Source: a virus
Strand: one strand, 5' to 3'
Virus genome (UHGV): UHGV-1366828
Length of the DNA stretch: 64,000 nucleotides
The notes under the pieces are model-generated. The model worked only from the letters and a program-made list of their open reading frames with translations, made no database searches and had not been told where the DNA came from. Made by a program: the position numbers and the translations under genes. Shown here piece by piece: positions 2,891-49,439 of the stretch. How positions within the stretch are numbered: position 1 is the stretch's first letter; each line of letters starts with the position of its first letter.

Positions 2891-3196
2891 TCAATCTTCT
2901 GGGAGTAGAATTTTATCCGTGGCTAATATAGTTGTATAATCTTCGTTGAAATTATGGTCTGTATCTTCTTTAGCACTAAAACTAATCTTTGCGCTTATTC
3001 TGAATGGAGTATCACAATAGTTACATGTATAACATTCTTCCGTGTCTATATCTGTTCCGTAAACTTCTAAAATCTTATGAGTGTCTCCGGATCTTTCAAT
3101 ATAGTTAGCCTTTCCAAAAAAAGCTGTAGGTAAATAGATTTCTTGTGCCAAATATTCTGCACCACAACGTGGGCAAGTTATAACTGTTCTTTTCAT
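2891..3196 (-). CDS. zinc-ribbon protein (101 aa; CPRCG ... CNYCD)
   Basis: Two CxxC pairs; AGGAGC 9 nt upstream of the ATG. Confidence 0.55.
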   Translation of the reverse strand: MKRTVITCPRCGAEYLAQEIYLPTAFFGKANYIERSGDTHKILEVYGTDIDTEECYTCNYCDTPFRISAKISFSAKEDTDHNFNEDYTTILATDKILLPED

Positions 3197-3224
3197 TCTA
3201 TAAGCTCCTGTTTTCTACAATAAT

Positions 3225-3253
3225 ATTCTATTATATATAGATACTGAAATCAA
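3225..3253 (-). promoter_or_regulatory. sigma70-like promoter (minus strand): -35 TTGATT, 17-nt spacer, -10 TAGAAT, about 25 nt upstream of the 3196 start
   Basis: Read directly on the minus strand in the AT-rich 265-bp gap. It follows the terminator of the upstream late operon. Confidence 0.4.
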
Positions 3254-3329
3254 CTTGAAATTTCTTAATTTCAAAATATATAATTTAATACTATTATTTG
3301 TTAATTTTATATTGTTATTATTTGTCCTA

Positions 3330-3390
3330 ACTTAGTTAAGAACAGGCTGTTAACTTAGTAAAGAACAAGCCGTTTACTTAGTTAAGAACT
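3330..3390. repeat. Three direct repeats ACTTAGT(T/A)AAGAAC with 23-24 bp spacing (iteron/operator-like)
   Basis: Copies at 3330-3343, 3353-3366 and 3377-3390 in an AT-rich intergenic region between two transcription units. Confidence 0.6.
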
Positions 3391-3404
3391 TATGTTTACT
3401 TTCT

Positions 3405-3445
3405 ATACAACAAAATGAGGACATCCATTACAGATGCCCTCAAGT
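3405..3445 (-). terminator. Candidate rho-independent terminator ending the long structural operon
   Basis: Minus-strand RNA GAGGGCAUCuguaauGGAUGUCCUC (stem with one mismatch) followed by AUUUUGUUGU; lies 20 nt past the stop at 3462. Confidence 0.45.
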
Positions 3446-3461
3446 AGCGTGTATATTTTAG

Positions 3462-3992
3462 TTATTCAATAACTCCGCCGTCAATAACTGACAGGTCAAG
3501 TGAGTCTTTAGAGAACCGAATCTTACTTTCTTCGGGAACTTTCCAACTTCCGTCGTTATCTAGTTGCGCCAACTTAAGGGTCTTTACAACACCTGAATGT
3601 TGTGCTGTATACTCAAGGGCATTGTCAATTACAAGGCCTGTGTAAAGATTATTGTCGTCTTGCCCCCACAGTTCGTTATATACAAGACCGTCGTCAGCTG
3701 TTGCTGAAACTAATTCTATATGAGCATATACACTACCAGAGGTGTAGGTAGTTCCTAGCCCGATAGAACTTACAGGGTCTTCAATACGGAAATAATATCC
3801 AAATAGATTAAATTCTAGAGGCGCATCATCTGTTAATACATCTACATCGGATATGACGAATCCGTCTAAATCAATTAGTTTGTTTGTAATACCAACAAGT
3901 GCTTGTTCTGACATCAGCTTAGCAAGGGGTTTACTCCCGCCACGTCTTGTTGCTGGGAATACATTTATTTTGTTTGAAGTTATCGTTGCCAT
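3462..3992 (-). CDS. hypothetical tail/baseplate-associated protein (176 aa)
   Basis: Last ORF of the tail module; no motif recognised. Confidence 0.45.
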   Translation of the reverse strand: MATITSNKINVFPATRRGGSKPLAKLMSEQALVGITNKLIDLDGFVISDVDVLTDDAPLEFNLFGYYFRIEDPVSSIGLGTTYTSGSVYAHIELVSATADDGLVYNELWGQDDNNLYTGLVIDNALEYTAQHSGVVKTLKLAQLDNDGSWKVPEESKIRFSKDSLDLSVIDGGVIE

Positions 3993-4002
3993 TTATTTCT
4001 CC

Positions 4003-4515
4003 TTAGCCTTCATCTGGGTTTGTCATTCTCATTGCCCATTCAATTATAGCATTTACACCAGGGACAATTCTTGACAACTGTTCTGCTGGAATTTCTAGTC
4101 TTGCCAAATCTCTTTTTCCTGTTTTATCTTCTGTGTCCGTCACTAGATATAACATGAACACATCTGTAGAATCAACAGGAACAGCGGCGTATAACATATC
4201 GCTTGAGATTACCGCTGTAAAGTTAGCAACAAATCTTCCTTGATTGTCTACCTTCCAGCTTGCTCCTGTTAACGGAAGTCTATTTATTGTTAAATAGGAC
4301 AGGAAGTCATTGGTACTGCCAGGTACTAGCTTTCTTACGTCAATGTACTTCGGAATGTCACAATCCCCTCGGTAGTTTCCGCTCATTATTCTTGCAAAAG
4401 ACTCAAACAAAGCAGGCAGTCCTTCATTGTGGGACTGGAAGGAGAATACTCGGTCCTTTATTTTTAATTTTACATTAACATTTCCATTGTACCAAGTTTC
4501 AGTTATATTTTTCAC
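4003..4515 (-). CDS. hypothetical tail protein (170 aa)
   Basis: Intact ORF, tightly packed with its neighbours. Confidence 0.45.
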   Translation of the reverse strand: MKNITETWYNGNVNVKLKIKDRVFSFQSHNEGLPALFESFARIMSGNYRGDCDIPKYIDVRKLVPGSTNDFLSYLTINRLPLTGASWKVDNQGRFVANFTAVISSDMLYAAVPVDSTDVFMLYLVTDTEDKTGKRDLARLEIPAEQLSRIVPGVNAIIEWAMRMTNPDEG

Positions 4516-11242: not shown

Positions 11243-13459
11243 TTAAGAATACTGAAAATACAATTTTCCGCTCCACCAACCAGAAGGCTCTGCGGTACCA
11301 CAACTATTAGACAAATAATTGTTGTCTAAGAAGAATCCACCCTCCCCCGCATAGAAATACTTCGCGAACATTGACCCGTCAGTTCCCATACGAATTGAAG
11401 TTTCTGCTTTGTTATTTCCCGCATTATAGTTTTCATCTGAAACAAAACTGAAGTAGTAATCGTTTCCTAGTGACCCGACCTCCCAAGTTCCTATGTTACA
11501 TTTTGAAGAAGTAACGGGCCAGAATGCCTGTTTAGATGCATCAAAGTCAGCATTTCTTACTAATGCCTGGTCACGTGCACCTCCCCAGCTTGAAGCTCCG
11601 CCTTTTGGTCTAACAACCCCGTTTCCATTTTCTGATTCAAGTTGTAGCCGTTGTCCATATACCCAAGACCCTGCTCTAACATCTCTTCTTGCATACACGT
11701 CTCCTAATCTGCAATCAACTCCTGCAGCAACTCCAGAATCTCCGTTACCATCAACAAATCCTATACCGTACCAAGATTTAATAGCGATGTTGCAAAATCC
11801 GTCTGCCCCCATTTTGATGCCGTCTCCGTTTCCTTTATATATACCATTGCCAGATCCCCAAGCATCTCCTGAAGCCAGAAGAAGAGCACCGTCAGCATTG
11901 TACTGTGCAAATCCTAAGTTTGTGGGTGAGTTTACACCTACTCTTCCGAAGACAGTTAACTCTTTGTCAGTTGACGAAAGTCCGAAGAATGCAGCTCCAA
12001 GGCCATTGGACTTTAAATTAAGAGTTGCAGCAACACTTGTATTTGTTAAAGTACGTGTTTGAGTAGAAGTTTGCCCAAAAGAGTCAATAGCCAGTACTTC
12101 AATCAGATACGAGGCTGTTGTTGCAATGTTTCCTCCCCCAACAGGATCTGATTTCACATTGTTCTGTATGTCGGTATAATCGCTGTACGAACCTCCAAAC
12201 ACTTGCCAACGAGTCCTTATCAACAGCCAGTTATTTCCATCGTATGAAGTATGTGAAACTGACGGTGTTACTGCATAGTAAGTTCCCGAAGAAGATTCGT
12301 TACCAGAGGAGTCACATCGTATTACAGACAGGCTGTTAAATGATGGAGGGTAGTACGCTTTACCGACAATCGTTTTAGTATAAGTTGTGCCCAACCCTCG
12401 AGAGTCATATGCTGTTATAGTTACAATATTGTTACCAGTAATTGCTTTTCCCAGATTAAACGTTCCTGATTCAGTTATGCTGGTATTGAATGAATTACAG
12501 CTTATTCTAACTTCTCTTAATGTGGAGCCATAGTTACAGGTTATTTTACTTGTATCTAGTGTAGCCTTTACCTCACTAAAGCCCGCCACACAGTTTCCTG
12601 CTTTAACTTCATAAGTAGCAGAAGCCCATCCGGCGGCACATGTAGGAGGTCGGTTGTTAGTCGGGATGCTCAACGTGAACTCCGCAGAAGTTTCTCCTAC
12701 TTTAGCACCGCCACTGTTATAAGAATATACATAGATTCTGAACGACCCTGAAGTAGCATTCGGTATGTTGCTTGCAAGAGAATCTGAGGGGGCAGTATAC
12801 CACATAGACCCGCCCGTAACTTTTTCGCCGATTAACTGCATTCCGCTATGATGTACAAAGGAGTACCAAACATCATACTTGTAATCTGATCTGGACGGAT
12901 TCCATACGATCTGAAACTGCTGGTCCATATACAGCGTTGTAGAAACACTGATGGAGGTTGCAGGGGTTTCCGGCCTTATTTCACTCAGTGAACAAGATAT
13001 GTTTGTTACACCCTTCATAAACGGGTTAAGAGAATTTGTCCCGTTCGTTGTTAAAAACATATAATATGTTCCAGAGGACGTTATATTGCAGGGAACATTT
13101 ACTACAATATTTGCCGTCCCTTCCCAACCGTTAATCCAGGCCACGGATCTTCCGATAACCGCAGTGCTAGGAGCTTCAGTACTAAACGCCGATACAGGGT
13201 CGTAGTCATAAATCAACGCATAAACCGTTACGTTTTCATAGCTATCATTGGAGGCAATATTTCCAATGTTGAAATTCAACCCGGTAACTTGATACCCTGC
13301 AGTTACTGAAATCGGCATCGTATAAACAACACCCTGGTCCCAGAAGCTAGCGTTGTCGTATCCCATCACTATAGGATTTGTTGTTGAATCTACCCATGTT
13401 AATCCTACATTGGGCAGACCTTGTCTGGCTTTATAAAATGATAATGAAACAGTACTCAT
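11243..13459 (-). CDS. tail fiber / receptor-binding protein (738 aa)
   Basis: Beta-rich and S/T/G/N-rich, sitting in the fiber cluster. Confidence 0.5.
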   Translation of the reverse strand: MSTVSLSFYKARQGLPNVGLTWVDSTTNPIVMGYDNASFWDQGVVYTMPISVTAGYQVTGLNFNIGNIASNDSYENVTVYALIYDYDPVSAFSTEAPSTAVIGRSVAWINGWEGTANIVVNVPCNITSSGTYYMFLTTNGTNSLNPFMKGVTNISCSLSEIRPETPATSISVSTTLYMDQQFQIVWNPSRSDYKYDVWYSFVHHSGMQLIGEKVTGGSMWYTAPSDSLASNIPNATSGSFRIYVYSYNSGGAKVGETSAEFTLSIPTNNRPPTCAAGWASATYEVKAGNCVAGFSEVKATLDTSKITCNYGSTLREVRISCNSFNTSITESGTFNLGKAITGNNIVTITAYDSRGLGTTYTKTIVGKAYYPPSFNSLSVIRCDSSGNESSSGTYYAVTPSVSHTSYDGNNWLLIRTRWQVFGGSYSDYTDIQNNVKSDPVGGGNIATTASYLIEVLAIDSFGQTSTQTRTLTNTSVAATLNLKSNGLGAAFFGLSSTDKELTVFGRVGVNSPTNLGFAQYNADGALLLASGDAWGSGNGIYKGNGDGIKMGADGFCNIAIKSWYGIGFVDGNGDSGVAAGVDCRLGDVYARRDVRAGSWVYGQRLQLESENGNGVVRPKGGASSWGGARDQALVRNADFDASKQAFWPVTSSKCNIGTWEVGSLGNDYYFSFVSDENYNAGNNKAETSIRMGTDGSMFAKYFYAGEGGFFLDNNYLSNSCGTAEPSGWWSGKLYFQYS

Positions 13460-42443: not shown

Positions 42444-43181
42444 TTACTCCTCAAATAGATTTATAAACTTCCCTGTGTATATGTAATGTTCAAGGGACAA
42501 TTTTCTTGACAAACAATTCGTTAACGCTTCCTTCAATAAAGAAAGCTCTCCTCGGTCACGTAACGTTTTAAAGATTTCATTCCCTCTACCGTATTCTCCT
42601 TCAATAGAAATTGAATTCTTTCGCATTAAGTAGAGGGCATCTAAAACATCAGTAATCTGCTCGTAGTCCTTTGACGTAATTGCCGCGTGAATTCTTTCAG
42701 TCCAAGCATCTAATTCTTGTGTTAGATCTCGCTTCTCAATCGTAATTGGTTTGGGTTCTTTCACCCACTTATTTCTACGAATAGAATAAATACCGTTAGA
42801 TTGAACGGACGAATGTAAATCTTCAACATAGAGTTCAACAGGAATTTCTTTTATCTTTATGTCAAATTCTTTATTGAAAGCTGTCTTCTTTAGATTAAAG
42901 ACTAACGTCTGTATATCTTCAGGAACACCTTCTGTTAGTTCAGTGTTAACAATTAAGTGAACATCGATGTCGGAATGCTGTGTATAGTTGTAAGATGCAT
43001 TACTTCCTACCAAAACTACATCTACAATATGCATCGGTATTTCAACATACTCTTCAAAATTGTCTGCAATTTCAAGTAGCTTTTGTCTAACTTCAGGTAT
43101 CAATGTGTTATCTTTCCATAACTTTGGGTTTAAAGTTTCATGCAACTGAAAATCTTCAAGTACGTTCTTCATATGTCTCAT
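42444..43181 (-). CDS. nucleotidyltransferase (Pol-beta superfamily) domain protein (245 aa)
   Basis: VLVGSNASYNYTQHSDIDVHLIV matches the minimal NTase fold signature (GS..x9-13..D.D). Confidence 0.55.
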   Translation of the reverse strand: MRHMKNVLEDFQLHETLNPKLWKDNTLIPEVRQKLLEIADNFEEYVEIPMHIVDVVLVGSNASYNYTQHSDIDVHLIVNTELTEGVPEDIQTLVFNLKKTAFNKEFDIKIKEIPVELYVEDLHSSVQSNGIYSIRRNKWVKEPKPITIEKRDLTQELDAWTERIHAAITSKDYEQITDVLDALYLMRKNSISIEGEYGRGNEIFKTLRDRGELSLLKEALTNCLSRKLSLEHYIYTGKFINLFEE

Positions 43182-43450
43182 AAAAGATCCGCCAATCTAA
43201 TAATGTCTGAACTAGAAATCTTATTATTATGGTGAAGAGCAGTATGTGCGCTGCTTCCGTGTTCAGAGCTTTTTCTTACCAGACTAAGATTAGTTATACT
43301 ATAATTAGAGTGGTCTTTATCTTCATGATGTAACACCCAATCATCAGGGTCAATTGAAACTCCTGTAAGATACTGTACTAAAGCACACACTACTTTTTTG
43401 GCTTCGGTCTGCCCTCTAAATCCTTCTTCTAGTAATTTAAATCTCATTCT
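43178..43450 (-). CDS. small HNH endonuclease (about 90 aa); real start probably the internal Met MRFKLLEEG (the 135-aa ORF overlaps QueH)
   Basis: WVLHHEDKDHSNYSITNLSLVRKSSEH gives the HNH pattern (HH..D..N...NL....H). Confidence 0.5.
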   Translation of the reverse strand, partial: RMRFKLLEEGFRGQTEAKKVVCALVQYLTGVSIDPDDWVLHHEDKDHSNYSITNLSLVRKSSEHGSSAHTALHHNNKISSSDIIRLADLL

Positions 43451-43967
43451 TTGAATACTCACACCCACAATAATTCTGTTGATATAAATTATACTTCTCG
43501 CACAGTTGCAATGATCTAGGAAACAGATATCCGAAATCAAACGGCATATACATAACTCCCACAGACCCGCCAACAGCGGTTCCAATACTGTTTATAACAG
43601 CTGAATCTTTATACGGACTGATTGTTAATGTAGTTGAAAAATATCCAAATCCATTATTGTTTGCATATATTGCAGCACCCTTCAATCTCTGACCGATACA
43701 TACCTTGCATCTTTTTCCACCCTCGGGTTCATTACTTAAAGAAGAACATGCGTTATAATATTCCTCCGGATAGAAATCTGCAATAACTACCGGTACATTA
43801 TAAAGTTTACCGAGTCGGATAAGCTCGTCGGATCTTTTATAGTATTCAATTTCATCTGTAATACAAGGATTGTAATAATACAACGTTATATCAAAATACT
43901 TTGAGTACTCATCAATAACAGCACTACTACAGGGTGCGCAACAAGCATGAAGTAATAATTTATCCAT
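43437..43967 (-). CDS. queH: epoxyqueuosine reductase QueH (DUF208)-like protein (about 176 aa from MDKLLLHACCAPCS)
   Basis: N-terminal LLLHACCAPCS plus the downstream CKVC / CGCE cysteine pairs, as I recall for the DUF208/QueH family; size fits. Confidence 0.55.
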   Translation of the reverse strand: MDKLLLHACCAPCSSAVIDEYSKYFDITLYYYNPCITDEIEYYKRSDELIRLGKLYNVPVVIADFYPEEYYNACSSLSNEPEGGKRCKVCIGQRLKGAAIYANNNGFGYFSTTLTISPYKDSAVINSIGTAVGGSVGVMYMPFDFGYLFPRSLQLCEKYNLYQQNYCGCEYSKNEI

Positions 43968-43984
43968 CTGTTCAGTTCCTCCGA

Positions 43985-45397
43985 TCAATTCTTTTTCCAC
44001 ATGTAACATGACTGACCACAATCATATATCTCTACAAAACTGTGTGCGATCATTAACTCATCGTTTGATGTTCCTTTACCATAATGTGTTCCAAATAGCT
44101 GGTCAAAGCCTCTTTGTCTTAACAGGTTGTCTGTAATATGTTGACCCGTGTTTATGTTAAACCAGTGTCGTGTTGGAATACCATAATCGCGAAGTTCAAA
44201 CCCCAAGGAAGTATAAACGTCGCCGTTAAATTTACTGTTATCACAATAGGATATAATGGACGACGGAGAATAGTTCTTTACAAAATAACTAAATAACTTT
44301 TCAGCTCCGCCAACTACATATCTGTGAGAACAGTATCTTATAAGCTCGTATTCGTAATTCTTGTTATATCTTGGACGACCGAACGTCATAATTGAAACTA
44401 GTTCATCATTACAGTAAAGTCCCAAATCAATTGTGCTTTTAGCATAACCTTGTAGATGATATTTGTTCAGATAATTTATACAATCTTTCTTGTTGACTTG
44501 TTTTACAACACAGTTACGAGCATATACTTTTTCTCTGGGCAGAAGCAAAGAAACAATTTTATCCCAATCATCCCAATCCCAAACATGAATACATCTATAG
44601 CCGTTATCTTGAGCTACTTTACTCTTCTTATAATGATAATCTTTCTGAAGTGTTGTTGACCCAGGAATAGGACAGAATGTCACGTTGTGACAAGGCCAAG
44701 GATTTATTTCTATAAGAATGTCGTTTACTTTGAAGTCGTATTTAAAATGTTTGTTGTCATATCCGATGTAGAATTCTCTTGTATATTCAATTCCTGCAGT
44801 ATCCAACAATTCTGAAAACTTGGCGTTAGGCTTACTATCATTTGTATATTTTGCAAGGGCAAAAGAATTTACAACTCCATACTTGTCAAGGTTTGTAGCT
44901 GACCTTGCATGTTTAGCATGCTCAATCTTTTCTGGAACATTGAAATAATGTTTGTATCGTTCTTCAATTAGATGTTGTAATTCTTCATGAGATTTTTTAC
45001 CCCATGCAGCTTTACAACCTTCCGACACCTTTTCATAATGTTCTTCTTTTGTTATCCCCTTGCTTTGTAGATTGGCAAGCATCGTAGCGTAAACTTGTTT
45101 GTCATATTTTTCTTTGCTTCCTGCATTCTTATACTTAGTTTTAAGAACTAACCTTGCAGACTGCTTGCGTGGCTTTCTTATACCGTATTCTTTTATGACT
45201 TTATCTAATGTCCAAGATGTAATGTTGTACTTCTTCATCAGAAAGTCATAAGTACAGTTTTTATTCAAATATAAATCCGTAATTTCTTCACGTGGAATTT
45301 TTGACAATACATTCTTTTCAAACTTTTCTCTGTTAATTCTTTTAAGAGTTTCTGATGTTCCATTAGACATTTTACTGTTACTCCTGTGTGTAAACAA
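43985..45397 (-). CDS. endonuclease-like protein, paralog A (470 aa): N-terminal module + conserved C-terminal domain shared with the 45485-46987 gene
   Basis: C-terminal about 230 aa nearly collinear with paralog B (GYRCIHVWDWDDWDKIVSLLLPREKVYARNCVVKQV ... YELIRYC ... GGAEKLF.YFVK.YSP.S..SYCD.SKF.G.VY..LGF). EINPWPCHN + YHYKKSK is reminiscent of a PD-(D/E)xK-type nuclease core. Confidence 0.5.
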   Translation of the reverse strand: MFTHRSNSKMSNGTSETLKRINREKFEKNVLSKIPREEITDLYLNKNCTYDFLMKKYNITSWTLDKVIKEYGIRKPRKQSARLVLKTKYKNAGSKEKYDKQVYATMLANLQSKGITKEEHYEKVSEGCKAAWGKKSHEELQHLIEERYKHYFNVPEKIEHAKHARSATNLDKYGVVNSFALAKYTNDSKPNAKFSELLDTAGIEYTREFYIGYDNKHFKYDFKVNDILIEINPWPCHNVTFCPIPGSTTLQKDYHYKKSKVAQDNGYRCIHVWDWDDWDKIVSLLLPREKVYARNCVVKQVNKKDCINYLNKYHLQGYAKSTIDLGLYCNDELVSIMTFGRPRYNKNYEYELIRYCSHRYVVGGAEKLFSYFVKNYSPSSIISYCDNSKFNGDVYTSLGFELRDYGIPTRHWFNINTGQHITDNLLRQRGFDQLFGTHYGKGTSNDELMIAHSFVEIYDCGQSCYMWKKN

Positions 45398-45407
45398 ATA
45401 AAAAAAT

Positions 45408-45445
45408 ATGGAGAAGGGAGCTAAAGTCCCCTCCCCATAATATAT
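45408..45445 (-). terminator. rho-independent terminator between the two paralogs
   Basis: Minus-strand GGGGAGGGGA-cuuuagc-UCCCUUCUCC (10-bp stem, 2 G.U pairs) followed by AUAUUUUUUUAUUUGUUU. Confidence 0.6.
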
Positions 45446-45484
45446 TATAAGGTGTTTCTAAATTGTAAACAACTTGACCGTCTC

Positions 45485-46987
45485 TCAACTGAAAAATGTG
45501 TACTTGGCTTGACCCGCATCATATACCTCTACAAAACCGTGTTGAATCATCAGTTCTCTATTTGATGTGCCTTTACCATAATTGGTATGAAACAGATTGT
45601 CAAAGCCCACTTTGTTTACAGAAGAATCTAGTATATGTTGTTTACTATTCATGTTGTACCAGTGTTTACTAATATTTATACTTTCCAAGGTCATGTTTAA
45701 TTTCTGGTACACATTACCAGAAAATTTGCTCATATCACAGTAGGAAACAACCGATTTTGGAGAATACTTCTTTACAAAATAATCAAACAGTTTCTCCGCT
45801 CCTCCAATAACAGACTTACAACTACAATAACGAATCAACTCGTATTCATACTTATCTGTATACCGAGGTTTACCAAACGTCATCAAAGAGATTAAATCGT
45901 CATTGTAAAATAGACCGACTGCTATGTCCGAAGATATATAACCTTGTAAATGATAGTTATTTAGAAACTCTTTCGTTTCTTCTTTAGGTAGTTCTTTAAC
46001 AGTACATTTTCTGGCATATACTTTTTCTTGAGGACGAAGTAAAGAAATTATCTTCCCCTTATCATCCCAGTCCCAAATATGAATACACCTGTAACCATTC
46101 TGAGAAGCTAACCTAGATTTGTCTCTATGATATGTAGGACTTTTAACGTTATCATCACCAAAAGGTGACCATGTTGAATTGTGTGTAGCAGAAGGATTTA
46201 CTTCTACTAGTATATTTTGTCCTGTTAATTCAAAATCAAAACTTTTGTTAATAAGTGTTTTTTCTCTACTGAATTCTATGTTGTTATCAGACAACAATAT
46301 TCCAAATTCTTGATTAGGAGAAGATAGACTGCTGTTCCCCTTACTAAATTGACATTGAGGAAGCAATGTAGGAAACTCTACTCCATACTTTTCTAAGCAT
46401 GTTTGCTTCATGCTCTCTATAGCTTTTTCACGACTGCCAGGAAGCTGAGAAACATTTGTTATACCGTATCGTTCAATCAAGTTATTTTTCTGAGATTCTG
46501 CTATATGATCATAGGCTGCAGAAATTGAACCATAAGTTCTAATAAAACCTTCTTGAACTAGGTCAACACGTTGAAAAGGATTGTCTACACCATATCGTTC
46601 TTGGCAAGTCTTTTTAATTTTCTTCCGAATATCTGTGTTACCCGAAGCTGATGGTGTCCCGTATCTTTCAATACACGTTTCCTTAATCTTTTCTGTGTTG
46701 TTGTAATTAGGGTCTCCATATCTAGACTCTTTGGATTGCTTTATCCGATTCTTTATCGTATCGGATTTTGACGGATTGTCTACACCGTACTTCTCTATGC
46801 AGGTATATCTAGTTTCCTGTTGTCTACTATGAATCGGAATGCCTTGTTTCTCAAGAGCATTAACAACTACATACTTTGACGTATTATAATGTTTAGAAAT
46901 ATAATCCGCAGAGTGCGAACTATACAACCTTTCCAGTTCTTCTTTGTTTACAAAATCAAGAAATAGCTGTGTTTTATTTTTTCTCAT
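45485..46987 (-). CDS. endonuclease-like protein, paralog B (500 aa) with 4-5 N-terminal repeats C(I/L)E(K/R)YGV.NP...K.K.T
   Basis: Repeats CIEKYGVDNPSKSD / CIERYGTPSASGN / CQERYGVDNPFQ / ERYGITNVSQ / CLEKYGVEFPTL, then the conserved C-terminal domain shared with paralog A. Confidence 0.5.
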   Translation of the reverse strand: MRKNKTQLFLDFVNKEELERLYSSHSADYISKHYNTSKYVVVNALEKQGIPIHSRQQETRYTCIEKYGVDNPSKSDTIKNRIKQSKESRYGDPNYNNTEKIKETCIERYGTPSASGNTDIRKKIKKTCQERYGVDNPFQRVDLVQEGFIRTYGSISAAYDHIAESQKNNLIERYGITNVSQLPGSREKAIESMKQTCLEKYGVEFPTLLPQCQFSKGNSSLSSPNQEFGILLSDNNIEFSREKTLINKSFDFELTGQNILVEVNPSATHNSTWSPFGDDNVKSPTYHRDKSRLASQNGYRCIHIWDWDDKGKIISLLRPQEKVYARKCTVKELPKEETKEFLNNYHLQGYISSDIAVGLFYNDDLISLMTFGKPRYTDKYEYELIRYCSCKSVIGGAEKLFDYFVKKYSPKSVVSYCDMSKFSGNVYQKLNMTLESINISKHWYNMNSKQHILDSSVNKVGFDNLFHTNYGKGTSNRELMIQHGFVEVYDAGQAKYTFFS

Positions 46988-47043
46988 CTAGCTGTCTCCT
47001 TACAGACATATAAGTAAATCAAGCAGTAATCTTGAAGTAAGGT

Positions 47044-47101
47044 TCAAGAAACAGTTTCGAACCTGCTGTCCTGCTTGATGTGTAACACTTTATACAATTT
47101 T
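47044..47101 (-). other. nested inverted-repeat RNA structure 60 nt downstream of the capsid gene stop
   Basis: Outer 7-bp pair CAAGCAG/CTGCTTG enclosing CTTGAA-gtaagg-TTCAAG and a palindromic GTTTCGAAC; no U-tract. Confidence 0.4.
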
Positions 47102-47136: not shown

Positions 47137-48156
47137 TCAGGCCTTGATCTTACCCGCTACCAGGAGGCTAGGATTGAGAAGCTTCAGGTCGTACATCGTA
47201 CTCCAGCCTTGTGTGGTTCCACCATCGGCGAACTGAAGCAGCTGAGTAGGAACAACGCTCATGTAAGGAGCATAAACAGCGGCGGAGCTCATTAAATCGC
47301 TGCCGTTGACACCTACAATGAACTTACCAGCTTCAAGAGCAGGAGAAACGAACACCTTAAGAGAACCGAGAGTACCAGCGAAGTAAGGACCGTTAACATC
47401 GCTCACAGGAGCAGGAGTCCAGTCACGAATGAAAGCAAACACCGGAAGAAGGTCGCTGGCGCAAATCATGTAGTTAGGAACAAATTTCTTTGTACGGTCG
47501 TACACTACGCGCTTGGCATCTTCAACAGTTTCCATGAATCCCTGATAGTGCTCTGTTTTGGAAACACCTACATTAGGAGTCTTGCTCCATTCAAGGGTTG
47601 TGTCGGTCGGGGTATTGTCGATAAGAAGCTGAACAACTTCTGTGTCGATTTCATATTCGAGCTGACCAACAGCCTTCTCTGCAAGCTGGTCACCAAGGTC
47701 GAAACCGTAGTCGGTCTTAGCCTGGAAAGCAGCAATCTGAGAGTAGTAAACAGCGATACGACGAGCCTTCGCAACAAGAGCGATATTCTTCATCTCTGCC
47801 TTGAGCATCGGAAGGTCGTTCTGAGGAACAACTACGTTGTCGTAGTAATAAGCTACACGGTCAGTGGCAACAAGAGTTGTGGTAATTGTCTTGCCGTCAG
47901 CGCCAACATTCACATAAGTGGGATCACCAGTTGCGTGAGTAACCTTAACGTCGTACTTAACGCCGTCCTTCTCAAACGCGCCCTTAACAACAGGAGTCCA
48001 GGAAAGAGCAAGAGAAGCACCAGCCGTCGGAGTTTCAACAACACGGTCACCAGTGTAATCAGCATCGACATCGCCGAGAGCGAACGGGCTGTTCAGAAGC
48101 TTACCAGCAGTGGTCTGACCCTTGGTCTTACCAGCAGTATACTCAATGTAAGTTAT
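47137..48156 (-). CDS. major capsid protein (T4 gp23-like), exon 2 (339 codons)
   Basis: The frame stays open upstream of the annotated TTG back to a TAG at 48223-48225; no Shine-Dalgarno site; sequence continues exon 1 across the junction (...PMSSMSGF|ITYIEYTAGKTKG, compare T4 ...PMNSPTGQVFALRAVYGKDP); C-terminal ...AAVYAPYMSVVP resembles gp23 ...GIYYAPYVALTP. Confidence 0.7.
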   Translation of the reverse strand: MTYIEYTAGKTKGQTTAGKLLNSPFALGDVDADYTGDRVVETPTAGASLALSWTPVVKGAFEKDGVKYDVKVTHATGDPTYVNVGADGKTITTTLVATDRVAYYYDNVVVPQNDLPMLKAEMKNIALVAKARRIAVYYSQIAAFQAKTDYGFDLGDQLAEKAVGQLEYEIDTEVVQLLIDNTPTDTTLEWSKTPNVGVSKTEHYQGFMETVEDAKRVVYDRTKKFVPNYMICASDLLPVFAFIRDWTPAPVSDVNGPYFAGTLGSLKVFVSPALEAGKFIVGVNGSDLMSSAAVYAPYMSVVPTQLLQFADGGTTQGWSTMYDLKLLNPSLLVAGKIKA

Positions 48157-49151
48157 CAAATGTGTTACGAATAATTCATCTATCTTTATACTAATTTTTT
48201 GAAGGGATTTGTTAACCTTCCTCTAACATAACCTTCAGGAGGATCGCCAATAAACATATGCTCTTCTTTTCCGTTATTCCACCAACGAGAACCTTTATGT
48301 GCTTCTATACTTCTTTGTATAGAATATTCCGTGGGTTTCTGCCCTTTACTAGATTCTCTCATCTTGAGAATTGTTTCTTCTGAGCGTTTCTTACCAGTAT
48401 TCGCTTTAGCTCTTTTTAGTTTAGTTTCTTCAGATTGTTTTTTTCCTGTCCAGTAAGCTAACTTGTACCTTAATTCTGGAACAAGATTAACATTACCGTC
48501 TCCACCATCAGTTAGATTATACCCATTAGGATATCTACACTGTAGCGTTTCAATCCAGAAACTTTCTTTTTCGTTTAATTCTTCAAGAGTTTCAGCTGTA
48601 TCAATAAGCTCTCGCGAAAAATTTTCTAGCCCATAGAACTTAATGCTACTTTTAATATAAGTTCCGCTAGTAATGTAATTCTCATCAAGTTTTGGAAAAG
48701 AATATTTATGTTTACCAACATACACTTTATGTGTAATCAGGTTTGTTAGTTTATACACATAACCATACATATTTTAATCTCCTCTAAAGATAAAATATAT
48801 TAAAAAGTAGTAATTCAAATATTAGAGGTATTTGAAAAAGGGAGCTAACCTCTGTCCTACTTTATAACTAAGTTATAAAGATATCAAATTATTCTCTTTA
48901 TGTTACCATAAAGTTCAGACTATATCATCATCCTATATTGTTTTATCCTCTATAGGACGCCTCGCACTTGGACCTCATTTGAGGTCTACTCTACTCTTTT
49001 ACTCGCATAAGTTTTTCTCTTATGCTACAATTTCGATAGTCGTTGAGCCTTCTCTAATTATTAGAGCTTGGCTGCTGATTGTCCCGTCGGGATTTTCCAG
49101 CAATTCACGAGGTTTTTTACTATATATTACTATATAGGGATTCTAAACTTA
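48157..49151 (-). mobile_element. Group I intron (995 nt) carrying a GIY-YIG homing endonuclease ORF
   Basis: P1: exon GGAUUU pairs with intron GAAUCC (U.G at the splice site), and the intron starts with an in-frame UAA. Core elements P AAUUGCUGGAAA, Q AAUCAGCAGC, R GCUCAACGACUAUCG and S GAUAUAGUCUG are present. Intron ends ...CACAUUUG (omega-G). The HE ORF lies 3' of S. Confidence 0.7.
48186..48770 (-). CDS. GIY-YIG homing endonuclease with NUMOD3 DNA-binding repeats (194 aa), intron-encoded
   Basis: YGYVYKLTNLITHKVYVGKH (GIY...YIG), R..E...N.. core, tandem GKKQSEETKLK / GKKRSEETILK NUMOD3-like motifs; AGAGGAG site upstream. Confidence 0.75.
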   Translation of the reverse strand: MYGYVYKLTNLITHKVYVGKHKYSFPKLDENYITSGTYIKSSIKFYGLENFSRELIDTAETLEELNEKESFWIETLQCRYPNGYNLTDGGDGNVNLVPELRYKLAYWTGKKQSEETKLKRAKANTGKKRSEETILKMRESSKGQKPTEYSIQRSIEAHKGSRWWNNGKEEHMFIGDPPEGYVRGRLTNPFKKLV

Positions 49152-49439
49152 AAATCCAGACATAGAGCTCATCGGGTGGACAATTACTAGCTCATTAGCA
49201 ATTAAGTTAGGAAGAGCAACAGTTGTAAGGTTCAGGCAGAATTTCTTATAGAGTCCGAGATCTGAACGCTGTGTGCCAGAAGCAGCATCAAAAGCTTCAG
49301 AAAGGAACTTTGAAGTATTGTCAAGCACCTTAGCAATAACTAGCTTCTTGTGGTTATCCATCTTCTCGCCGTTGTGAGTTCTGCCGTAAACGGATTCAGA
49401 AACTGCAAGACGACCTTTGTATTGTTCTAAAAGATTCAT
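49152..49439 (-). CDS. major capsid protein (gp23-like), exon 1 (96 codons)
   Basis: KKLVIAKVLDNTSKFL ... LTTVALPNLIANELVIVHPMSSMSGF parallels the T4 gp23 N-terminus (KQAIIAKIFENQEKDF ... MVRRAIPNLIAFDICGVQPMNSPTG). Confidence 0.7.

Follow-up and report, generated by a model that had tools for sequence, protein, structure and literature searches.

Two probable Hef-like homing endonuclease genes next to the major capsid gene in a T4-like phage

Two paralogous genes and the terminator between them

Positions 43985-46987 of the virus genome UHGV-1366828 (numbered within the 64,000-nucleotide (nt) stretch that, at its full length, is called the window below) hold two genes downstream of the major capsid gene. 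We refer to them as HefB and HefA and consider it probable (roughly 0.8) that both are Hef-like free-standing homing endonuclease genes that entered the site behind the capsid gene independently of one another. HefB (45485-46987, minus strand) encodes a protein of 500 amino acids (aa), and its ATG is preceded by AGGAG. HefA (43985-45370, minus strand) is listed in the table of open reading frames (ORFs) as 43985-45397, with a TTG start and 470 aa. This TTG, at 45397, falls inside the T-tail of a terminator; the ATG at 45370 is preceded by AGGAG, and MSNGTSE is the HefA start called in related contigs. HefA thus most likely begins at 45370 and is 461 aa long; of the two lengths given in the initial annotation, 500 and 470 aa, the first stands and the second should probably be shortened.

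HefB and HefA are 47% identical across 358 aa (E 5e-111) and are therefore paralogs; the window contains no other member of the pair's kind. The region that they share, first put at ~230 aa, in fact extends over about 360 aa and comprises two domains. An intrinsic terminator (45397-45439, minus strand) separates the genes: its hairpin (45439-45407) has a 13-base-pair (bp) GC-rich stem followed by a T-run, with a folding free energy of -20.3 kcal/mol and a z-score of -4.9 relative to shuffled sequences. The 3' exon of the major capsid gene (47137-48159, minus strand), a Gp23-like gene (Pfam Gp23, E 3e-21), ends at 47137, which leaves 149 bp to the start of HefB, and in intron-less relatives is joined to the 5' exon without a break. 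The initial description of the locus as a paralogous pair, split by a strong terminator and placed downstream of an intron-containing capsid gene, is thus borne out.

HefB is preceded by a structured 101-nt leader (46988-47088, minus strand), in which a 9-bp inverted repeat (ATCAAGCAG...CTGCTTGAT) surrounds two smaller hairpins; the Shine-Dalgarno sequence sits within a further small hairpin. Because this leader is more folded than expected (z -2.9), it may be a translational control element, resembling that known for T4 homing genes.

A Vsr-like nuclease in a very large family

HefB and HefA share one module order: an N-terminal helical array is followed by a Vsr-like nuclease core and then by a Mom-like domain of the GNAT fold. 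The AlphaFold2 (AF2) model of HefB, built on 79 homologs, is predicted with high confidence (mean predicted local distance difference test score, pLDDT, 92.7) and falls into three parts. Residues 1-234 are helical in this model. At their start, residues 5-47 (46847-46975, minus strand) form four helices (5-12, 15-24, 27-33, and 38-47), which we infer to be a helix-turn-helix-like bundle; Pfam HTH_28 is present at the N-terminal end of some HefB homologs. Residues 55-213 (46349-46825, minus strand) match Pfam DUF7487 (PF24308, E 4e-31) and contain seven (E/S)(K/R)YG repeats, each modeled as a helix with YG at its end. The YG motifs lie at residues 67, 90, 109, 132, 152, 174, and 201, a period of 19-27 aa, and four of the seven units carry a Cys; the four to five 30-aa repeats counted earlier are to be replaced by these. 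The repeats presumably make up a DNA-binding array. HefA has one clear unit and several degenerate ones, and in the Pfam scan it did not match the DUF7487 model; the same scan found NUMOD in neither HefB nor HefA, and NUMOD3 is carried by some of their homologs (P0020, P0059).

The nuclease core occupies residues 218-317 of HefB (46037-46336, minus strand) and the corresponding part of HefA (about 44534-44848, minus strand); it is a small alpha/beta domain of ~100 aa. Modeled alone by AF2 (pLDDT 84.6), the HefB core finds as its top Foldseek match in the PDB the catalytic domain of the homing endonuclease I-Bth0305I (3R3P; E 2.9e-4, template modeling (TM) scores 0.63/0.66, about 0.65, over 95/97 residues), followed by E. 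coli Vsr (1VSR and 1CW0, both E 7e-3). The predicted core is thus a Vsr-like variant of the PD-(D/E)xK fold. The initial annotation had foreseen a nuclease of this type but had looked for it further downstream, around YELIRYC and GGAEKLF. By Foldseek and by profile-profile comparison these motifs, together with YFVKxYSP, belong to the Mom-like domain (residues 318-500 of HefB, 45488-46036, minus strand, ~185 aa; about 43988-44530 in HefA, minus strand), and only GYRCIHIWDWDD, in which the HefB core ends, belongs to the nuclease. The proposed fold check on the C-terminal domain returned a GNAT, with phage Mu Mom (8BV8) on top, and the nuclease turned up in a separate core that precedes it.

Ten residues of the core (E242, D251, E262, P265, H269, Y286, H287, K290, W307, and D308, in HefB numbering) are invariant in the 79 homologs, HefA included, and E242, D251, E262, N264, and H269 are conserved among the homologs. 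How do they relate to the active site of I-Bth0305I, the prototype of the EDxHD family? An indirect route leads through the Hef-like enzyme of phage Acj9, for whose nuclease domain 3R3P is the best sequence match in the PDB (E 0.024): in this alignment D251, N264, and H269, invariant in the HefB family, are the counterparts of D196, N208, and H213 of I-Bth0305I, and E262 is probably the extra conserved acidic residue that Taylor et al. describe in that family. The similarity is confined to the core. I-Bth0305I is an intron-encoded protein of 266 aa with NUMOD-type motifs at the N-terminus and the nuclease domain last (PMC3239194), whereas HefB and HefA are free-standing, carry DUF7487-type repeats, and have an extra 185-aa Mom-like domain.

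The family to which these proteins belong, at first thought to be perhaps uncharacterized, is by sequence comparison a known and very large one, and HefB and HefA are new members of it. Full-length matches of both proteins are found to PHROG 3339, annotated as “homing endonuclease” (HefB, E 8e-75; HefA, E 5e-56), and likewise to PHROG 559, which is labeled “HNH endonuclease”. No HNH-type Pfam family was found in the window proteins at E <= 0.1, nor any HNH fold among the structural matches, and this second label appears to be a misannotation now propagating through phage records. An NCBIfam search gave no match. HefB has at least 4591 homologs. By tblastn, homologs occur in 412 GenBank phage records, where they are labeled Hef, Hef-like, homing endonuclease, and, once, “nuclease/acetyltransferase”; those annotated as Hef or Hef-like include matches in Acj9, CP30A, IBB_35, and phiP4-3. 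Genomes often have several copies in this search: CP30A-type Campylobacter phages have 10-11, PA5oct has five, and an uncultured jumbo phage has as many as 17. At a threshold of E <= 1e-3, an exhaustive HMMER scan for the combined nuclease and Mom-like module retrieved 16,265 cluster representatives; the stricter threshold of 1e-10 leaves 11,739. In the 150 top-scoring matches of the listing, the module is nearly always C-terminal in a protein of 450-800 aa. At the DNA level, the locus has no close relative among GenBank phages by megablast, which gave nothing beyond a 45-bp match to two Aeromonas phages.

The family is linked to the hef gene of phage U5, which encodes a unique endonuclease cleaving nrdB (PMC2988022) and lies near nrdB at the position of mobE (PMC2988022; Sandegren 2005, whose title states that hef replaces mobE). 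The connection of HefB and HefA to U5 Hef is indirect and would run through annotation: Acj9p227, located between nrdA and nrdB, is recorded as a 533-aa “Hef-like homing endonuclease”, and in Campylobacter phage IBB_35 the matched homolog has a neighboring gene with the annotation “similar to Hef [Bacteriophage U5]”. In a BLASTP comparison, HefB and Acj9p227 (E 5e-22) are collinear over residues 89-400, from the repeats through the nuclease into the beginning of the GNAT domain. Like U5 Hef, Acj9p227, the F-LimIII/VII/VIII/X enzymes of Dickeya phage LIMEstone1, and their counterparts in CP220/CP30A-type Campylobacter phages, HefB and HefA are encoded by free-standing genes wedged amid conserved phage genes, often in multiple copies. 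They differ in lying downstream of a capsid gene, a new location, rather than between nrdA and nrdB, and the T4-type Hef-like members are only about 26% identical to the window proteins. Two further bodies of work concern the same architecture: Hef-type enzymes have been placed in the Vsr-like EDxHD family (Taylor et al., 2011, PMC3239194), and fusions of Mom to a restriction endonuclease (Mom-REase) have been described in jumbo phages, with five copies in PA5oct (Iyer et al., 2021, PMC7824862). The earlier proposal of free-standing homing endonucleases that combine modular repeats with a PD-(D/E)xK-type nuclease agrees with the Hef-like annotation and with 3R3P as best structural match; DNA binding by the repeats is presumed.

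Cassettes that near-identical relatives carry or lack

If HefB and HefA are homing elements, are they present in some close relatives and missing from others? Related loci, 34 in all, were gathered by a capsid protein search in IMG/VR and by look-ups of the closest HefB homologs; the window proteins were mapped onto them, and their DNA was aligned. The order capsid-HefB-HefA recurs in three loci (L001, L002, L004). Three others, whose capsid is 98% identical (L005, L006, L025), have the order capsid-HefA-QueH and are without HefB, and one, with a capsid again 98% identical (L011), has the order capsid-terminator-QueH and neither Hef gene. Relatives with two, one, or no Hef genes have capsid genes that are 95-98% identical. 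The presence/absence polymorphism that the initial annotation had suggested looking for is there, and the universal synteny that in its view would have spoken against mobility is not seen. In more distant relatives the site looks different: at 86% capsid identity an unrelated 182-aa ORF fills the slot (L007, 9118-9666), at 84% the next conserved gene directly follows the capsid gene (L008-L010), and in three loci with only about 50% capsid identity (L019, L022, L034) a Hef-like gene again lies immediately 3' of the capsid gene.

The alignments define what comes and goes. The HefB cassette (45475-47088, minus strand) is 1614 bp long and consists of the 101-nt leader, the ORF, and 10 nt; in the four loci without HefB (L005, L006, L025, L011), there is only “AT” in its place, between ...TTGTATAAA and AGTTGTTTA.... 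It begins 48 bp past the capsid stop codon, ahead of the terminator hairpin, and the same hairpin stands directly 3' of the capsid gene in L011, L005, and L007. The terminator between HefB and HefA is thus the capsid gene's own, displaced behind HefB by a cassette that lies past the capsid stop codon but ahead of the hairpin. The placement of HefB upstream of the capsid terminator suggests late expression by read-through. The HefA cassette (43985-45396, minus strand; about 1.41 kb) extends from just past the T-run to the HefA stop codon; in L011 an unrelated ~50-bp spacer replaces it, and homology resumes at TCGGAGG, the ribosome-binding site of QueH.

Junction alignment revealed no target-site duplication at either cassette, and a transposon-like insertion was rejected on the grounds that both target-site duplications and terminal repeats are missing. 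A tandem duplication in place, the origin of the pair implied by the initial annotation, was likewise rejected: relatives carry HefB and HefA independently, as separate cassettes, and 53% of positions differ between the two.

The synonymous sites tell of a further difference. Compared with L001 and L004, the capsid 3' exon has a synonymous divergence (dS) of 0.11-0.21 and HefA, compared with L001, L004, L005, and L025, one of 0.13-0.20; for HefB the L001 and L004 alleles give 1.4-1.7, ~10 times the value of the flanks. HefB alleles are in fact saturated at synonymous sites (window 45485-46987 versus L001 10001-11503 and L004 3820-5322). The history of HefB is therefore different from, and much deeper than, that of its flanks, as horizontal exchange of cassettes would predict; these comparisons indicate that the HefB cassette has been swapped between lineages at the same site. 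The mobility of HefB and HefA is, on this sequence evidence, well supported, and a Hef-like gene borne in a capsid-gene intron of L033 (see below) and those behind distant capsid genes fit a homing element.

By analogy with U5 Hef, I-Bth0305I, and the Seg and Mob enzymes of T4, movement could proceed as follows. During co-infection with a phage that lacks the cassette, the N-terminal array would bind an extended target in that phage's capsid-gene region or close to it; the Vsr-like core would cut the bound target, probably as a dimer, because each nuclease core has one active site; and recombinational repair would then copy the cassette, along with flanking markers, into the recipient phage. 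T4 Seg (GIY-YIG) and Mob (HNH) genes are likewise intergenic cassettes that stand beside essential genes and are absent from relatives, and spread by cleavage of the neighboring gene and co-conversion has been inferred for them (PMC2988022); their catalytic folds, by contrast, are unrelated to the Vsr-like core of HefB and HefA.

Homing endonuclease genes commonly degenerate once fixed. HefB and HefA could accordingly be decayed or domesticated remnants that have lost the ability to cut DNA; they would then survive behind the capsid gene as neutral passengers or in a regulatory or DNA-binding role. HefA has lost most canonical repeats and its DUF7487 match, as such a remnant might, and alignment of the capsid 3' ends and terminators of HefB-plus and HefB-minus genomes did not find a HefB target site. 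Both ORFs, however, are intact and retain all family-invariant nuclease residues. The ratio of nonsynonymous to synonymous divergence (dN/dS) in these comparisons is 0.07-0.09 for HefB and 0.09-0.18 for HefA (0.07-0.18 over all modules, nuclease core included), next to 0.09-0.13 for the capsid 3' exon; broken down by module, it ranges from 0.04 to 0.19. Since every module is thus under purifying selection, HefB and HefA appear to be kept functional; recent movement is indicated both by the presence/absence polymorphism and by HefB's foreign history. Decay or domestication of the pair is very improbable.

The unfound target site weighs against homing as well, and so do four other observations. 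Over the final 500 bp of the capsid gene and the terminator, HefB-plus and HefB-minus genomes have no fixed differences, so an immunity polymorphism is not visible in this part. In the indirect Acj9-3R3P alignment, the invariant H287 appears to stand where the EDxHD motif has its last Asp (D222 of I-Bth0305I). Sequence-only PDB searches with HefB, with the nuclease profile, and with the C-terminal profile returned nothing significant, so the fold assignments rest on predicted structures. Finally, it is not obvious why a homing endonuclease should need a GNAT domain that is so highly constrained.

The surroundings of HefB and HefA are themselves in flux. The slot between the capsid terminator and a conserved 245-aa gene (window 43423-45396) is hypervariable: it may hold HefA, QueH, the unrelated ORF of L007, or, as in L008-L010, nothing. 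QueH (43437-44021; Pfam QueH, E 2e-54) is absent from L001 (slot coordinates 13011-13316) and L004, which are otherwise collinear. Just downstream of QueH, at about 43178-43470 of the window, lies a small minus-strand ORF with an HNH-like motif (LHHEDKDHSNYSITNLSLV), which has a 96-aa homolog in L001 (13030-13320) and may be a third small nuclease-like gene at the locus.

On the other side, the capsid gene is a hotspot of group I introns (in the window and in L001, L004, L005, L006, L011, L025, and L033). The window intron (48157-49151; ribozyme core 48896-49161, RF00028, 106 bits) follows capsid residue 96 and contains an ORF for a GIY-YIG/NUMOD3 protein (48186-48770), a GIY-YIG enzyme of the kind to which T4 Seg belongs. 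In relatives with >95% capsid identity, introns follow residue 63, 89, or 96 in differing combinations; there are two in L025 and in L001, four in L033, and their endonuclease ORFs differ or are missing. In L033 (IMGVR_UViG_3300028797_000104), a capsid group I intron contains a 525-aa Hef-like ORF (2923-4500) with ten internal stop codons. We rejected the notion that this is a pseudogene: all ten are TAG, and three of them stand at Gln positions conserved in the family. Since, in addition, the ORF ends in TGA, this phage appears, from the codon pattern, to read TAG as glutamine; read in this way, the ORF is intact.

A Mom-like domain and what it may do

What, then, is a Mom-like domain doing in a homing endonuclease? 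In a Foldseek search the C-terminal domain of HefB places chains A and B of phage Mu Mom (8BV8; E 1e-8 and 3e-7) above all generic GNATs, and it also matches a stand-alone phage Mom in BFVD. Mu Mom, a Gly-tRNA-dependent GNAT that modifies adenine N6 in DNA, is thus its closest structural match. Sequence profiles give a graded answer: the C-terminal profile aligns with a 33-member Mom family profile at a probability of 81% (E 1.2e-5) and weakly with the single sequence of Mu Mom (hhalign, E 0.035), and HefA has a weak match to the Mom-like PHROG 1384. The Pfam Mom model (PF25680) matches neither HefB nor HefA; homologs P0008, P0087, and P0020, at 21.7-25.8 bits, fall short of its 27.1-bit cut-off and align with just its first 50 positions. 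HefB and HefA differ from Mu Mom in their fusion to a nuclease, in falling below the Pfam threshold, and in having an invariant GG loop where S124 of Mom sits.

This last difference concerns the active site. Of Mom residues, R111, S124, D149, and R151 are reported to be essential for momylation, S124 being one of two that are essential for catalysis (PMC13219725). In the profile-profile alignment, H58, E108, R111, S146, D149, G156, and Y159 of Mom correspond to the invariant H346, E383, R386, S415, D418, G424, and Y427. S124 aligns with a non-conserved, non-Ser position in the GGAEK loop, adjoining the invariant Gly-Gly, and R151 falls on a gap, with the invariant K421 nearby. The domain is, at the same time, the most constrained part of the protein: in HefB its dN/dS is the lowest of all (0.04-0.06), which indicates stronger constraint than in the nuclease, and 32 of its about 185 columns are invariant. 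In one homolog (P0241, 829 aa), two tandem nuclease plus Mom-like modules are joined in one polypeptide. Our best guess is that the Mom-like domain serves as a DNA-engaging or dimerizing module adjoining the cleavage site.

A different role follows from the work of Iyer et al. (2021), whose Mom-REase fusion (PMC7824862) is this very architecture; the five PA5oct copies reported there agree with the five places found by tblastn. In such single-chain conflict enzymes, akin to restriction-modification systems, the Mom-like domain would acylate the phage's own adenines and the nuclease would destroy unmodified DNA of the host or of competitors, with mobility being secondary. Because it is not obvious that homing calls for a constrained GNAT domain, there is room for this reading; the exceptional constraint on the Mom-like domain and the conserved equivalents of H58, R111, D149, and Y159 speak for it. 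The essential S124, however, lacks a Ser counterpart and R151 has none to align with. The lifestyle is also at odds with a defense system: HefB and HefA are dispensable in near-identical phages, and family members occur in many copies, beside conserved genes and in introns, as homing elements do. Moreover, N-terminal repeats as long and variable as these suit recognition of an extended, specific target better than that of a short restriction site, and the best match of the nuclease core is a bona fide homing enzyme. As the principal role of these proteins, restriction is unlikely; it could nevertheless be compatible with homing, and both may be true at once.

Within the homing interpretation, the Mom-like domain might itself be catalytic, marking a base within or close to its own target with an acyl or aminoacyl-derived group, so that cutter and antidote would reside in one chain. 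We regard this as a tentative idea and a rather doubtful one. It would explain why the GNAT domain is the most constrained, why no immunity polymorphism appears in the capsid flank, and how a genome could hold up to about 17 copies.

As annotations, HefB and HefA are unremarkable, a further two Hef-like homing endonuclease genes from a T4-like phage. The locus offers more than this, in that relatives with two, one, or no cassettes, base-exact junctions, and an intron-borne relative make up a natural allelic series, a set of substrates for mapping cleavage sites in a family that has seen very little biochemistry so far. It also brings together three literatures, those on Hef-like homing enzymes, on the EDxHD/Vsr-like family, and on jumbo-phage Mom-REase fusions, which concern one architecture. 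Knowing the role of the Mom-like domain would be relevant to the questions of how a homing enzyme spares the genome that encodes it and how DNA hypermodification enzymes spread; if the domain does mark its own target, the Hef-like element would be a mobile restriction-modification unit in a single polypeptide, with self-immunity based on modification.

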